Positions 3,028 to 63,389 of a stretch of DNA of 64,000 nucleotides are shown here, piece after piece. The notes under the pieces were generated by a model. That model had not been told where the DNA came from. It saw nothing but the letters and a program-made list of their open reading frames with translations, and ran no database searches. This stretch comes from a virus, in the UHGV virus genome UHGV-2113617. One strand, written 5' to 3'. A program made the translations under genes and the position numbers. How positions within the stretch are numbered: the stretch's first letter is position 1; every line of letters begins with the position of its first letter.

Positions 3028-3228
3028 TTAGTCATAATAATCAGTAACAGTCCAAGCTTCATTCCTGTTGGACATTATTTTCGTATATTCTGATTTAAAT
3101 GCATTCTTAAGCATAGATTCAGTAACTATATGCTCTTCATTAGAAAAATTATTTCTCAGAATATATCGTTTTATTTCAGGAATAGTTAATAGATGCTGTC
3201 CAGTTGAATATTCCATGTTTTCCTCCAT
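3028..3228 (-). CDS. hypothetical protein (T4 45.2 position)
   Basis: 66 aa ORF between rpbA and gene 46. Confidence 0.55.
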   Translation of the reverse strand: MEENMEYSTGQHLLTIPEIKRYILRNNFSNEEHIVTESMLKNAFKSEYTKIMSNRNEAWTVTDYYD

Positions 3229-3270
3229 AGAGATTATACTCTAATAAATTAAAGCATAATCTCTTATAAA

Positions 3271-4953
3271 TTAAACCATTACAGTAAACCGACCAACTTT
3301 CTTCATTTGGAGATGCTGACCATATGTTTGTGGGTCATGGTCTCTATGCGAAATAACAAAAACGTTAGTATTTTTTAAACTATCTAAAATAGTTGAAATA
3401 GCTTTTACACCTTCAACATCAGTTGCTGAATCAAAAACTTCATCGAGAATTAGTGTGTTTATTTTAACACCTGAAACTTTTTCAGCAATATCACGCCAAG
3501 TAAATAAAAGAGCAATATCAATTCGTGCTTTTTCACCTTGACTAAATGAAGCATAACTAAAATCTTCACGACCACGGGATTTAATTGTTTCATTAAATTC
3601 TTCATCTAATGTAAACACATAATCCGCTTCCATTATTTTAAGATAATGGTTAATCTGCTTATTAAATAATGGAATGTACTTTTTAATAATAGCACCTTTA
3701 ATACCAGAATCTTTGAGCATATCAGTCAAAATTCCTCTGTGGTATTTTTCCATTACTAAATTAGTTTTTGTCTTAACAATTTTATCAAGTTCTTCTTGAA
3801 GCAGTGCTATTTCATCAGCATGGTCAATAAACTCAGATGATGCTTTTTCTATAGCTGCTTTAACTTTTTTAGCTTTATCTACAGTCGTGATTAGAGATTG
3901 CTTTTTATTGCGAATATCATTTGCCAACGTCTGCTGGGTTTTAATATTATCTCGGTATTCATCAACAAGAACTTTTAAATTATCACGATGTGTTGAAAGC
4001 TGTTCAAACGAATGCGTGCATTCAGAAACTTTATCTTTAATTTTAGAAACAACTTTATCACCGGAACTTAATTGTGACAAACAGGTTGGACATAATCCAC
4101 CTTCGTGATACATATTAATGACTTTATTATACGAGTCAATTTTTGATTTAATTAAAAATGCTTCTTGACCGATTTTATTAAATGCATCAGTCGGGTCTTC
4201 ATCCAAAACAATATTAACTAATCTTTCATTAGCTTCTTCTATTTCCGATTTTAGCGTTCTAGCTTCTTTTGCCAAATCATCATACATATTCTGCAGACGA
4301 GTAAGGTTATCACCAGTTAATTTTTTCTGGCGTTCAACGTTATCATTATATATTTTAATTTGTTGGATAATACTATCTTTTTTAACATCAAGCACTTGGT
4401 TTTGTGAATTTAATTCACGTATTAGTGCTTTATTAAGCTTATCCATTTCAGCTAATGTTCCTACCTCAAGCAGGTCTTCCACAAGCTTTCTTCGCGCAGG
4501 GGTCGACAAACCCATGAAAGGGGTATACCCTGCTGTACCAAGGACAACAATCTGCTTGAAACTGGCATATGACATTCCGATAAGCTGTTCAAATTCTGCT
4601 TGGAAATCTTTACTGCTGGCAGATTCATTAAGACGTGTACCGTTAACGGTGATTTCGAAAACGTTTGGTTTTTGTCCTCTTTTGATATAGTACTTTTTCT
4701 CATCATATTCCATCCACAGTTCAACTAAAAGTTCTTTCTTATTTGTGCTGTTTATTAATTGACCTTTCTTTACATCACGAAATGGCTTGCCAAAAAGCCC
4801 AAATGTGATGGCTTCTAACATAGTAGACTTACCACCGCCATTTCGTCCAGTAATAAGAGTTTTTTGAACCTTATCTAGTTGAATGTCAATAGGATTTCCA
4901 CCTACTGACATTATATTTTGATACCTAACTCGATTTAGTTTAAAATTCTTCAC
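3271..4953 (-). CDS. 46: recombination endonuclease subunit gp46 (Rad50/SbcC-like ATPase)
   Basis: 560 aa; N-terminal Walker A GRNGGGKST, long central coiled coil, C-terminal ABC-type ATPase region; T4 gp46 length. Confidence 0.9.
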   Translation of the reverse strand: MKNFKLNRVRYQNIMSVGGNPIDIQLDKVQKTLITGRNGGGKSTMLEAITFGLFGKPFRDVKKGQLINSTNKKELLVELWMEYDEKKYYIKRGQKPNVFEITVNGTRLNESASSKDFQAEFEQLIGMSYASFKQIVVLGTAGYTPFMGLSTPARRKLVEDLLEVGTLAEMDKLNKALIRELNSQNQVLDVKKDSIIQQIKIYNDNVERQKKLTGDNLTRLQNMYDDLAKEARTLKSEIEEANERLVNIVLDEDPTDAFNKIGQEAFLIKSKIDSYNKVINMYHEGGLCPTCLSQLSSGDKVVSKIKDKVSECTHSFEQLSTHRDNLKVLVDEYRDNIKTQQTLANDIRNKKQSLITTVDKAKKVKAAIEKASSEFIDHADEIALLQEELDKIVKTKTNLVMEKYHRGILTDMLKDSGIKGAIIKKYIPLFNKQINHYLKIMEADYVFTLDEEFNETIKSRGREDFSYASFSQGEKARIDIALLFTWRDIAEKVSGVKINTLILDEVFDSATDVEGVKAISTILDSLKNTNVFVISHRDHDPQTYGQHLQMKKVGRFTVMV

Positions 4954-14123: not shown

Positions 14124-14593
14124 TTTAAACTCTTTCTAAGCTGCTTCTTAAATGAAGCTATTAATTGTGTTTTAGTGTCAGATTCATTATATTCAAATCC
14201 TCTTTGAAGCATCTCAGCCATCATTTCCTCTTTTCCTAAACGAGAAAATTCCTTTGATTTATCTCCAACAAAGTTAGGGTGAATATTATTTTGGGTGTAA
14301 TCGGATTTTAAATAAGTAAGTAAATTTTCTAACCATTCAAGATAATCAACACCTTGTCCCTTTAAGCCAGAACGATTGAATTTATGCTTCATTTGACCTT
14401 CTGCAGCATTACAGAGATTACATAGCAACCCACGTACCTTTCCTGCTTTTGGTCCATTTAATTCATGGTCATGGTCAAGGTGATTAGCTTGAACATCAGG
14501 ATTTAGTTCTCGTTGGCAAATTAAGCATTTACCGTTTTGTGCATTATAAAATTTTTGTTTTTCTTCTTTGTATAATTTGCCAGTCAATAACAT
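14120..14593 (-). CDS. 49: endonuclease VII (Holliday junction resolvase) gp49
   Basis: 157 aa; MLLTGKLYKEEKQKFYNAQNGKCLICQREL..HLDHDHELNG Zn-binding HNH-like fold; T4 gp49 length. Confidence 0.85.
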   Translation of the reverse strand: MLLTGKLYKEEKQKFYNAQNGKCLICQRELNPDVQANHLDHDHELNGPKAGKVRGLLCNLCNAAEGQMKHKFNRSGLKGQGVDYLEWLENLLTYLKSDYTQNNIHPNFVGDKSKEFSRLGKEEMMAEMLQRGFEYNESDTKTQLIASFKKQLRKSLK

Positions 14594-33198: not shown

Positions 33199-33521
33199 TT
33201 AGAAAATAAATTTATCCAAGACTGTTCTTTAATTAAAAATGGCTCAGAATCATATGCCATTAAACTTTGGGTGATTAGTCCTTTAAAAGGTCCATCAATA
33301 AATTCCATGGTAAAATATGGAATTTTATTCATTAATCTTGCATTAGGAGCAGTACACAAAACTCTGCATCCTTTGAATACGCCTTTTTGTAATTTGTATT
33401 GCTTAGGATAAAATTCGCTCAAGACGTTGTTATTTGCCAAAATTTCAAAATGATTCACCAATTTATTTTTAATAGTTTTTGGCGAAAAATAAAGATATTC
33501 GAAAAGCTGCGTGTCTGTCAT
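33195..33521 (-). CDS. hypothetical protein (T4 vs.7 position)
   Basis: Start at ATG 33521 overlapping upstream stop; 108 aa. Confidence 0.45.
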
Positions 33522-34060
33522 CATTGCATTCCGATTACGAAAAACTGCGGACGAGTAATACCACCGATGCAACAATTACTATTGCAGCAGTGTTGTACAG
33601 TGTCAATATGGACGCTATAAATCTTATCCATATCAGGAGATTTAACAGGCTCATCGATTATATACAAAATCCGCGAAAGCGATAAACCTCTGAACTTGCT
33701 TCCTTTATTACCGATAAAACTACGGACAGAATCGGTAAATAAACGAAAACGTATACCATCATTAGAATAACGCGAAAATTCCTTTTTAATGTTATTTGCA
33801 GAAATTTTAGCGTAAGCTGAAGTATTAGAAAGAACAATAACTGTTCCACCGTCATACAACCAATTAGCGGCAAAATTAGTTACTGCAGTTGATTTACCGG
33901 ATTGACGTCCACCATCTAGTCGAAGTGTGCAATACTGCTTAAGTAAGTCTTCAAATGGCGGGATATATTCGTTTTTACAAATTTCTTCTACTCTAGCATC
34001 AGAATGGTGTGTAAAAGCATTCATCAGGGATAGATAAGGACCAGTTAAAAATGTTCTCAT
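33521..34060 (-). CDS. P-loop NTPase (T4 vs.8 position)
   Basis: Start at ATG 34060 (GAGAG SD); 179 aa; Walker A GGRQSGKST, Walker B ILYIIDEP. Confidence 0.55.
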   Translation of the reverse strand: MRTFLTGPYLSLMNAFTHHSDARVEEICKNEYIPPFEDLLKQYCTLRLDGGRQSGKSTAVTNFAANWLYDGGTVIVLSNTSAYAKISANNIKKEFSRYSNDGIRFRLFTDSVRSFIGNKGSKFRGLSLSRILYIIDEPVKSPDMDKIYSVHIDTVQHCCNSNCCIGGITRPQFFVIGMQ

Positions 34061-34108
34061 TTTATTCTCTCTAAATTTGGGCCATTCCATGGCGCATGAA
34101 TTGTCCAT

Positions 34109-34160
34109 TTCTGTATTTACCCATTACCGCACTTGGGCTCGACCTTATTACAGGTTGGCG
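34109..34160 (-). repeat. ~50-70 bp element, copy 1 (homologous to 34650-34740)
   Basis: Shares GCATGAATTGTCC(R)TTTCT(R)TATTTA(Y)C..ATTACCG with the ipIII-ipII intergenic region. Confidence 0.5.
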
Positions 34161-34225
34161 GGAATCCCTCACAGAATCATGAGGTCCAGCTTGTTCCCAT
34201 GTTATTTGAATGTAAATATTTTTGC

Positions 34226-34274
34226 CTTAATACTTATACCAGTGTGGCTTCGTTAAAATTTTTCATCGAGTCAT
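34226..34274 (-). pseudogene. denV: denV (endonuclease V) deletion remnant
   Basis: Promoter and GGAGAGG SD drive ATG ACT CGA TGA (M-T-R-stop; T4 DenV starts MTRINLT); downstream reads K-I-L-T-K-P-H-W-Y-K-Y-stop, resembling the DenV C-terminus KIAQRPTWYKYY. About 115 codons are missing. Confidence 0.6.
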
Positions 34275-34299
34275 TTTACCTCTCCAAGTAATTATGAAT

Positions 34300-34329
34300 A
34301 TACTATCACAATTTTAGGAGAAAGTAAAC
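34300..34329 (-). promoter_or_regulatory. T4-type early promoter upstream of denV remnant
   Basis: Minus strand GTTTACT ttctcctaaaattgtga TAGTAT; near-identical to the promoter at 35359-35388. Confidence 0.55.
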
Positions 34330-34331
34330 TG

Positions 34332-34634
34332 TTATTTACCTTTAATTACTTTAGCTGCTTCGATAGCCGCTTGCTGAAGGTCATCCATAGACATACCGAA
34401 TTTAGAAGCAAAGTTATCAATTTTCTTTTCGACAGCATTCAAAGGCTTGGCCTGTTTACCTTCATTAGCGCCAGGAAGAGCGAGAATACGTTCTTTGTCA
34501 ATATAAAGGCTTACAAGTTTCTTACGGTCTTTATCGGACAAATCATGAAATGAATGGGCCTTTTTATTTATAGCGGCTTCTAATTTACCTGCACTCACTC
34601 GCGCTTCAGTAATAAATTCTTGATATGTTTTCAT
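34332..34634 (-). CDS. ipII: internal head protein II
   Basis: 100 aa; N-terminal capsid-targeting sequence MKTYQEFITEA; adjacent to ipIII and e as in T4. Confidence 0.8.
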   Translation of the reverse strand: MKTYQEFITEARVSAGKLEAAINKKAHSFHDLSDKDRKKLVSLYIDKERILALPGANEGKQAKPLNAVEKKIDNFASKFGMSMDDLQQAAIEAAKVIKGK

Positions 34635-34649
34635 ATGTTTCCTTTAAAT

Positions 34650-34740
34650 GTAAATAGTTTTATTCTTTAAGTTTGGGACAATTCGCACGCATGAATTGTC
34701 CGTTTCTATATTTATCTATTACCGGGTTCGAACTCGGCTT
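34650..34740 (-). repeat. ~50-70 bp element, copy 2
   Basis: ipIII-ipII intergenic region homologous to 34080-34160; contains GATAAATATAG (late-promoter-like) on the minus strand. Confidence 0.5.
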
Positions 34741-34742
34741 TA

Positions 34743-35321
34743 TTAAGAATTACCACGGGCTGCATTAGCAACGGCGTAAGCGTACTGAACATTAGCGTCT
34801 TTAAACGTACCTTTAGAGGTATCTAGTTCTGCCTTAAAGCCGCCTTTAGTCATAACATCGGCAAATTCTTTGCGGAAAGCCATTGCATCAAGGCTTCTCC
34901 ATGACGATTTGTGCTTGGCGAATTCAAGACCAGCGTAGTTGACAGCCTTAGCTAATTTATTATCAATAACCCATTTACCAGCTTTAGGCACAAACACCGG
35001 GCCTTTCTGTTTAGAGAATAGTTTTAAATTCCAGCGACGAAGTTCACCATCAGCTTTAACAAAAGCTGCGTCCAAGTTACTAGCAACAACATCTTGAATA
35101 TGACCAAATTTAAGCCCATCAACTTCAATATTTAGATCGGTGCGCCAGCGAAGTCCTTCCCAAGCGAAAGCTTTAAAGTCGGAAGCTTTTGTAGCTAAGT
35201 ATCGTTCAATAGGAGCTGTTTTAGGGTCAAAGCCGTTTCCTCGGTAAGTCCACTCATCTTTATTAATGCCTTTGGCCTTTTCCACAGAAGCTTCAGCGAT
35301 AAATTCTTTATACGTTTTCAT
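34743..35321 (-). CDS. ipIII: internal head protein III
   Basis: 192 aa; N-terminal MKTYKEFIAEA capsid-targeting sequence; Lys/Ala-rich. Confidence 0.8.
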   Translation of the reverse strand: MKTYKEFIAEASVEKAKGINKDEWTYRGNGFDPKTAPIERYLATKASDFKAFAWEGLRWRTDLNIEVDGLKFGHIQDVVASNLDAAFVKADGELRRWNLKLFSKQKGPVFVPKAGKWVIDNKLAKAVNYAGLEFAKHKSSWRSLDAMAFRKEFADVMTKGGFKAELDTSKGTFKDANVQYAYAVANAARGNS

Positions 35322-35358
35322 GTGTTTCCTTTAAATATTTTAATTAGTAACTGTGAAT

Positions 35359-35388
35359 ATACTATCACAGTTCTAGGAGAAAGTAAAC
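35359..35388 (-). promoter_or_regulatory. T4-type early promoter upstream of ipIII
   Basis: Minus strand GTTTACT ttctcctagaactgtga TAGTAT. Confidence 0.55.
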
Positions 35389-35392
35389 AACT

Positions 35393-35923
<531 letters not shown>

Positions 35924-60198: not shown

Positions 60199-61656
60199 AT
60201 GATTGAATTAAAAGAGTTACCTTTTGTTGATAGCGTTCCTGACGAAGGTCAGGAACGTATTTCATGGATTAAAAATGGTGAAGAAATATTAGGAGCTAGT
60301 ACTAAGTATGGAAATGATGGATCAATGAATAGACCAATTGTTTCCGTGTTTAAAAACGTCGAAGTTCTTGATGAAAATGTGGGAATTCTTAAAACTGCCA
60401 TTGAAACATCACAGAAAGATATTAAAACAATTCAAGGAGTTTTAGATGTATCAGGAGATATAGAAGCACTATCGCAGATCAGTGTTAATAAAAATGACAT
60501 ATCGAATTTAAAGACACTTACCAGTGAACACACTGATATATTAACTGGAACTAATAATACAGTTGACAAAATTATTGCTGATATAGGTCCATTTAATGAT
60601 GAAGAAAACTCTGTCTATAGAACAATTAGAAATGATTTATTGTGGATTAAACAGGAATTAGGACAATATTCTGGCCAAGACATTAACGGTCTTCCTGTTG
60701 TTGGTAATGCTAGCACAGGAATGAAACACAGAATAATAACAAATAGTACATTATTATCTTCACAAGGCATTCGTTTAAGTGAATTAGAAAATAAATTTAC
60801 TGAATCTGACGTAGGATCATTAACTGTTGAAGTTGGTAAATTACGTGATGAACTTGGTAATAAACCAGTAGATTTTGGGCCAAATATTTATAATAGATTA
60901 AACACCATAGATGATAAACAAACTTTAATAATTTCTGATATAGCAGAAATTAAATCTTCTATTGGATACCCAGAAAATGTTTCTATAATAACAGAAATTA
61001 ATAATAACAAAAGTAGCATTGAAGCTATTAATAATGAATTAAATCAGAGTGAAGGTGTTAAACAGCGCTTAACGGCTATTGAAACTTCTATAGGTTCAGA
61101 TGATATTCCTTCTAGTATTAAAGGAAAAATTAAAAATCACACAACTTCTATTGAGTCTTTAAACGGAATTGTTGGTGAAAACACTTCGTCTGGTTTAAGA
61201 GCGAATGTTTCGTGGTTAAATCAAATTGTTGGAACTGACTCCAGCGGAGGACAACCGTCTCCTTCTGGATCTCTATTAAATAAAGTTTCAGTGCTTGAAG
61301 GAGAAGTTTCAGTTTTAAACAATAATGTTCAAAATATACAAGTTGAAATAGGAAATAATAGAACAGGAATTAAAGGTCAAGTTATTGAACTTACTTCACT
61401 TATAAATGGAAATAATCCTGACGGATCAACTGTTGAAGAACGAGGATTAACTAATTCTATAAAAACGAATGAAACTAACATTGCGGCAGTCACACATGAA
61501 GTAAATACAGCTAAAGACAATATATCCTCTTTACAGAGCAGCGTTCAAGCTCTACAAGAAGCAGGTTATATTCCTGAAGCTCCAAAAGATGGCCAAGCTT
61601 ACGTTCGTAAAGACGGCGAATGGGTACTACTTTCTACCTTTTTATCACCAGCATAA
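60199..61656 (+). CDS. wac: fibritin (whisker antigen control)
   Basis: 485 aa, long coiled coil, C-terminal foldon [27 protein letters not shown]. Confidence 0.95.

Positions 61657-61687: not shown

Positions 61688-63389
<1,702 letters not shown>

Follow-up and report, generated by a model that had tools for sequence, protein, structure and literature searches.

A denV pseudogene at the T4 denV position

Where bacteriophage T4 carries denV, the gene for T4 endonuclease V (pyrimidine-dimer DNA glycosylase), the virus genome UHGV-2113617 has an early promoter and a ribosome-binding site followed by a reading frame of only three codons, which raises the questions of what became of the gene, whether a live copy lies elsewhere, and what kind of T-even phage this is. 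We analysed a window of 64 kb (64,000 nt) from this ~167.6-kb gut-metagenome genome. Synteny with T4 gives the gene order e-ipIII-ipII-denV remnant-vs.8, all on the minus strand, as in T4 itself (Table 1); the denV stump amounts to 69 bases (34206-34274, minus strand). The region is a denV pseudogene of an ordinary, known kind, new only as a described instance: it is homologous to both ends of denV (by alignment with JE01, VIPECOOM01 and T4, the comparison with T4 being one that a previous sequence-only reading of this DNA had proposed), it lies at the orthologous position between ipII and vs.8, and it bears disabling lesions.

Table 1. Features of the e to vs.8 interval in the window (minus-strand features listed in their direction of transcription)
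Feature	Coordinates	Strand	Basis
e (T4 lysozyme)	35393..35887	-	ORF and translation, synteny with T4 e
Cassette copy 1 (promoter/stem-loop), e/ipIII gap	35346..35388	-	TTTACT-N17-TAGTAT; aligned with JE01, N2 and T4 cassettes
ipIII (internal protein III)	34743..35321	-	ORF; Pfam Phage_T4_IpIII on identical protein
ipII (internal protein II)	34332..34634	-	ORF; Pfam Phage_T4_IpII
Cassette copy 2 = intact denV early promoter	34287..34329	-	1 substitution relative to the cassette ahead of intact JE01 denV
denV ribosome-binding site GGAGAGG, kept	34279..34285	-	same in intact JE01 allele
Mini-ORF ATG ACT CGA TGA (M-T-R-stop), denV codons 1-3 joined at the deletion junction	34263..34274	-	
denV 3' piece = nt 356-417 of JE01-type allele minus one A	34206..34266	-	alignments, tblastn
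vs.8-like gene, 179 aa	33521..34060	-	ORF; homology to T4 vs.8 / ORF 64.0

The sequence-only reading had placed an intact early promoter and Shine-Dalgarno sequence here, and this is borne out, cassette, GGAGAGG and ATG all being the same or nearly the same as in the intact JE01 allele; the ORF, too, reads ATG-ACT-CGA-TGA (34274-34263) as it had reported. It had further seen a resemblance to the DenV C-terminus in LDEKF and KILTKPHWYKY, both taken to be out of frame. The resemblance is real: in a tblastn search of the whole window, residues 121-138 of JE01-type DenV match 34262-34209 at 89% identity (E = 3e-6), and this match, the synteny with ipII and vs.8 and the simulated deletion described below argue together that it is not due to chance. 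The frames need amending in part, in that LDEKF-stop is indeed what the +1 frame reads after the junction, but KILTKPHWYKY-stop (34262-34227) is in frame with the ATG, immediately behind the TGA; GKNIYI and the former stop codon extend the homology to 34206.

No continuous ORF of about 137-138 aa is present, and the homologous codons behind the stop hold a second stop. The Pfam family Pyr_excise (PF03013) spans DenV residues 1-86, entirely within the part that was lost, and the intact JE01 and W143 alleles score 51-53 bits to it over residues 1-86/87. The translation of the remnant matched no Pfam family, on which ground we rejected it as a functional protein. Since codons 4-118, including the whole Pyr_excise domain, are gone, no DenV can be made from the locus. 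At 100% identity the window agrees here with three human-gut metagenome assemblies (ENA ERZ28576353 scaffold_59, ERZ920300 k127_89742 and a Logan contig), which may all stem from one set of reads; the remnant is therefore not tied to a single assembler.

A 347-bp deletion between short direct repeats

The intact form of the allele is found in JE01 and VIPECOOM01, at the same position, where it encodes a 138-aa protein with 78% amino acid identity to T4 DenV. In these two phages denV contains the hexamer GACTCG twice, at nt 3-8 (ATGACTCG) and at nt 350-355 (ACGACTCG), the repeats matching at 7/8 positions when extended to A[T/C]GACTCG. Alignment with JE01 and VIPECOOM01 shows that exactly 347 bp between the repeats have been deleted, leaving 34272-34267 as the sole surviving GACTCG and the junction between 34267 and 34266. 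When we simulated this deletion in JE01 denV, the product differed from the window only by four substitutions and the lack of one A. Besides the promoter cassette and the ribosome-binding site, what was kept is ATG-ACT-CG and the last 62 nt of the gene; because the deletion is out of frame, a TGA follows at once after the junction. The internal deletion that the sequence-only reading had proposed is thus there, with its size revised from about 115 codons to 116 (347 bp plus a later 1-bp slip).

The microhomology is specific to the JE01-type allele, since the T4 allele has only CTCG at the second site. Like T4 denV, the remnant has the same locus, cassette, ribosome-binding site and first three codons, and homologous last ~20 codons; unlike it, it lacks codons 4-118 and comes from a parent allele of the JE01 type, only 78% identical to T4 DenV.

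The lesion is a clean natural case of a 6-bp microhomology deletion, and it would have arisen by replication slippage or microhomology-mediated recombination. Deletions and amplifications between microhomologies of 6-10 bp have been described in T4, some of the deletions removing ipIII (Srikant et al. 2022, PMC9391042). The window deletion resembles these in the 6-bp direct repeat at its ends, of which one copy is kept, and differs from them in having arisen in nature, in its small size (347 bp) within a single gene, and in an age sufficient for two genera to share it.

The same scar in other T4-like phages

A 62-nt probe across the junction, searched with an E-value threshold too strict for any match that was not contiguous, found the same junction in 18 GenBank records representing 16 phages: W143, SP1, BYEP01, N2, SH-2, HX01, SF, ZQ3, PHB12, RPN187, AV112, AV113, AV117, NHEP29, TH58 and ECCR664. 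Alignments, taxonomy and counts of upstream copies cover 15 of these 16, AV113 being left out; eight are Mosigvirus, five Tequatrovirus and two unclassified. The junction is identical in all 15 aligned carriers, with small drift, so that the scar goes back to one historical event and was inherited or spread by recombination. Exact-pattern scans of IMG/VR and JGI metagenome contigs matched the junction in neither its A5 nor its A6 form (see below).

No carrier has the scar annotated, and our literature search found no description of a denV scar, or of denV in T2 or T6. In HX01 (4046-4206) and NHEP29 (3984-4234) automated RefSeq/GenBank annotation has called short hypothetical ORFs over it, some of them on the other strand, and these calls are very likely spurious; recognition of an unannotated, sometimes overlaid denV scar in 16 deposited genomes is one use of the present analysis.

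Since the deletion the scar has continued to change. Two changes are common to all aligned scars and to the window, namely CCG>CCA and the loss of the original stop (TAA>CAA, 34208-34206). A nonsense codon (TAC>TAA, 34229-34227) is polymorphic among carriers. At 34263-34259 the window alone has an A5 run where the 15 other aligned carriers have A6, and its scar is the most decayed version among them. The differing A5 and A6 frames, the polymorphic nonsense codon and the scattered substitutions leave the coding frame without sign of selection.

A full-length denV was found by tblastn in every one of the 15 carriers examined, 0.4-1.7 kb upstream of the scar, between e and ipII; in such two-copy relatives the live gene sits directly 3' of e. 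The upstream genes fall into two allele classes: three carriers (BYEP01, SH-2 and N2) have the 78% class, and the rest have one of ~91%. In these 15 phages the scar is therefore a redundant second copy and no mark of lost function. In ECCR664 (OL631257, an incomplete record of 134 kb with sparse annotation) the upstream gene (3163-3572) was recovered as two overlapping tblastn pieces with an apparent frameshift, which is either a sequencing error or the sign of a second natural genome with both denV copies dead. Across our phage collection, the 798 records that hold DenV have 798 full-length places, one each, with no case among them of two intact denV copies in one genome, and in every relative examined denV is confined to the interval between e and vs.8.

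A mosaic window without a live copy

The window departs from the 15 carriers examined in lacking a full-length denV upstream, as well as in its A5. Between the end of e (stop at 35393) and the start of ipIII (35321) lie 71 nt, so e abuts ipIII with no room for a gene between them and the upstream denV is absent. A full-length denV elsewhere had been named as a finding that would overturn the pseudogene reading; tblastn of the 64-kb window found the remnant and no other denV, but such a gene is present upstream in the 15 other carriers. One further DenV-like tblastn match (14135-14281, minus strand; 41% over 49 aa to T4 DenV residues 56-101, E = 4.7e-4) lies within the C-terminus of gene 49 (endonuclease VII), and we judged it a chance match from a window-sized search at permissive settings.

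The nearest deposited phages are ~96% identical to the window over 24 kb, and none is closer. Identity in 200-nt bins is uneven across the locus. W143, a two-copy phage, matches the window at 99-100% from ~34800 to 33400 (ipII leader, ipII, scar and vs.8); in the ipIII segment (35400-34800) it matches at 88-94%, and the best matches there are JE01 and VIPECOOM01 (95.5-99%), both single-copy phages. By these bins the window is a recombinant, with a T4-type e-ipIII arrangement on the left and a W143-type scar on the right, and recombination probably separated a dead denV copy from its live partner.

Order of events

As the best overall explanation, which we think very probable, the 347-bp repeat deletion made a pseudogene of a JE01-type denV; it would have struck a genome that already had two copies, and a later recombination would have left the dead copy only. 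On this history denV would occupy two alternative positions, after e or after ipII, behind the same cassette in each, and homologous recombination between the two gene orders would yield both two-copy and zero-copy recombinants. In two-copy genomes one copy would decay, and the deletion would have been tolerated because the genome of origin held a second denV. The window phage would later have gained a T4-type e-ipIII junction from which the live copy is missing, and also the W143-like ipII-remnant-vs.8 segment, and so would have been left with the dead copy alone.

The serious competitor reverses the first steps: the deletion would have hit the only denV of a single-copy genome, and the upstream copies of the other carriers would be later re-acquisitions that restored UV repair. 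That the window proves a remnant-only state to exist, that denV is dispensable in nature (T2 and T6 are without any), that the upstream copies belong to two allele classes and stand in several contexts, as would fit several acquisitions, and that no genome with two intact copies is known all speak for it. We nonetheless consider it rather unlikely, because an upstream copy accompanies the scar in 15 of the 15 other carriers examined, in two genera; because the remnant segment matches two-copy W143 at 99-100% and ipIII does not, which points to recent import into the window's background; and because the window's scar, with its private A5, is the most decayed version.

Two other possibilities carry far less weight. 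A metagenomic scaffold is the source, and the length of an A5 homopolymer is an error-prone kind of detail, so one might ask whether the remnant reflects an assembly or sequencing error in a phage with an intact denV; with the identical junction in 16 independently isolated and sequenced phages, base-for-base agreement of three source assemblies, and a clean 6-bp direct repeat at the deletion ends, this is scarcely credible. Only marginally less improbable is that persistence of the scar reflects co-option, through a regulatory or peptide role of the three-codon mini-ORF, of a ten-codon ORF in the +2 frame (MKNFNEATLV) or of the transcript. Promoter, ribosome-binding site and ATG are conserved at 95-98% identity in all aligned carriers, and the cassette folds significantly, as co-option would have it; yet this conservation is not above that of the neutral flanks, behind the junction the window (A5) is read in another frame than the other aligned carriers (A6), the nonsense codon is polymorphic, the remnant has no Pfam match, and retention of the cassette is accounted for by its roles for the neighbours ipII and vs.8.

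The window phage is predicted to make no DenV and to be UV-sensitive, as T2 or a denV mutant is, if the ~104 kb beyond the window are also without denV. The significance is modest: a UV-sensitive, T2-like phenotype is predicted for an uncultured T4-like phage of the human gut, and mosaic recombination between alternative gene orders appears able to leave only a dead copy of an accessory repair gene. A broader proposition, about which we are evenly divided, is that this is a natural DenV-null Tequatrovirus in which recombination of an e-denV-ip... order with an e-ip...-denV order parted a decayed duplicate from the live copy, both orders being framed by the same cassette, that UV repair is lost repeatedly (T2, T6, this phage) where selection for it is weak, as in the gut, and that gene-order polymorphism with homologous recombination would, if this is true, be a general route to two-copy and zero-copy T-even genotypes.

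Comparison with T2 and T6

T2 and T6 are classically UV-sensitive, and the sequence-only reading had supposed from the loss of denV that this phage is a T2/T6-like relative. We searched the complete genomes of T2 (AP018813, 163,826 bp) and T6 (AP018814, 168,697 bp) with both DenV allele classes, with positive controls that worked, and found no DenV homologue in either (tblastn, best E = 4.6), a genome-wide absence that fits their classical UV sensitivity. The GACTCG junction and scar are likewise absent from both. In T2, e and the cassette are followed by one ip-like gene that replaces ipIII-ipII-denV and whose stop lies in the bases just past the denV end; in T6 the whole block from ipIII to vs.3 is missing, and e is followed, across a gap of ~60 nt (record about 60950-61010), by a promoter and regB. 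The window phage shares with them the predicted no-DenV phenotype in a T4-like coliphage; unlike its small lesion, their losses are larger and different rearrangements without the GACTCG scar. On genome comparison, denV absence is thus a state reached by three different structural routes in T2, T6 and the window phage.

With ~93% identity to T2 and to T6, against ~96% to its best relatives, no lesion shared with either, and a remnant segment that is 99-100% identical to W143, the window phage is neither T4 itself nor specifically T2/T6-like, and the supposed kinship is not upheld. The shortcut from "no denV" to "T2/T6 relative" is corrected accordingly.

Two details of the T2 record may be added. 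Its ip-like gene ends in TTCAAATAA (record about 62420-62440, compared with window 34200-34215) and there has a C in place of the T of the denV stop, as do all aligned scars (TTTAA>TTCAA); a scar-type or related allele, and not an intact JE01-type one, may have been the source of the T2 rearrangement. At about 62190-62200 its vs.8 homologue is 2 bp shorter than the window sequence through a deletion (GAATATCCCG vs. GAATATATCCCG); vs.8 as deposited for T2 is therefore frameshifted, and the annotation shows no more than a 174-bp ORF.

The promoter/stem-loop cassette

The window has two copies of the 43-nt cassette, one following e (35388-35346) and one following ipII (34329-34287), with 91% identity between them. 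In the copy ahead of the remnant GTTTAC (34329-34324) is read as the -35 element TTTACT (34328-34323), followed by a 17-nt spacer and TAGTAT (34305-34300). Both copies fit at 11/12 positions the consensus TTTACW-N17-TAYWAT given for the early promoters of T-even promoter/stem-loop (PeSL) elements (Comeau et al. 2014, PMC4122927). A generic sigma-70 scan called no minus-strand promoter, because the T-even early -35 (TTTACW) differs from the TTGACA that it seeks. The cassette folds as a stem-loop whose loop holds the -10 box (34275-34332, z = -3.5; 35340-35392, z = -2.5), as do the cassettes of T4 (z = -4.5) and JE01 (z = -4.2).

PeSL cassettes mediate module shuffling in T4-type phages (PMC4122927). 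The window cassettes resemble these mobile elements (Arbiol et al. 2010, PMC2839356; Comeau et al. 2014, PMC4122927) in having an early-promoter motif within a stem-loop, and in recurring at the edges of modules by which relatives differ; they are unlike them in that the -10 box and the ribosome-binding site lie inside the stem-loop, without a separate GC-rich terminator hairpin. From the position of the denV-flanking cassettes at the borders of the alternative denV sites, we infer that recombination took place at them.

In N2 the e-proximal cassette is fused straight to the denV ribosome-binding site, and the homologous e-proximal cassette is predicted to drive the intact denV in N2, BYEP01 and SH-2. 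The T4 record X04567 annotates the homologous denV -10 box and ribosome-binding site within an inverted repeat, a possible ipII transcription terminator. The kept cassette of the window probably still serves as terminator of the ipII late transcript and as early promoter into vs.8 and the genes beyond. The vs.8-like gene, the first intact gene 3' of the remnant, is presumably now the first to be served by that promoter.

Repeats in the leaders of neighbouring genes and the vs.8 start

A 47-nt repeat (34603-34649 and 35290-35336, 89% identical) covers the start of both ipII and ipIII, from the ribosome-binding site into the first codons, which encode MKTY(Q/K)EFI..., the N-terminal leader conserved among the internal proteins; ip-gene shuffling has in this repeat a further recombination substrate, and the single ip-like gene of T2 begins alike. 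A 58-nt direct repeat (79% identical) lies 5' of ipII (34688-34745) and 5' of vs.8 (34093-34150), and contains a terminator-like hairpin, a TAAATA late-promoter-like box and a leader hairpin. Its ipII copy folds well (z = -3.4) and its vs.8 copy is degenerate (z = +0.3); the repeat suggests that the vs.8 leader was derived from an ip-gene leader. Immediately 3' of the remnant, the conserved stretch 34145-34205 folds no better than shuffled sequence (z = -0.96), and we rejected a functional RNA at this place.

The longer annotation of T4 vs.8 gives a protein of 219 aa starting MRDSRQPV, which in the window is blocked by an in-frame TAATAA; X04567 gives a 179-aa vs.8 among five alternative starts. 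The vs.8 protein has a Walker-A-like motif, GGRQSGKST (window 33521-34172 region), and weak, sub-cut-off Pfam matches to AAA_14, AAA_30 and Terminase_6N.
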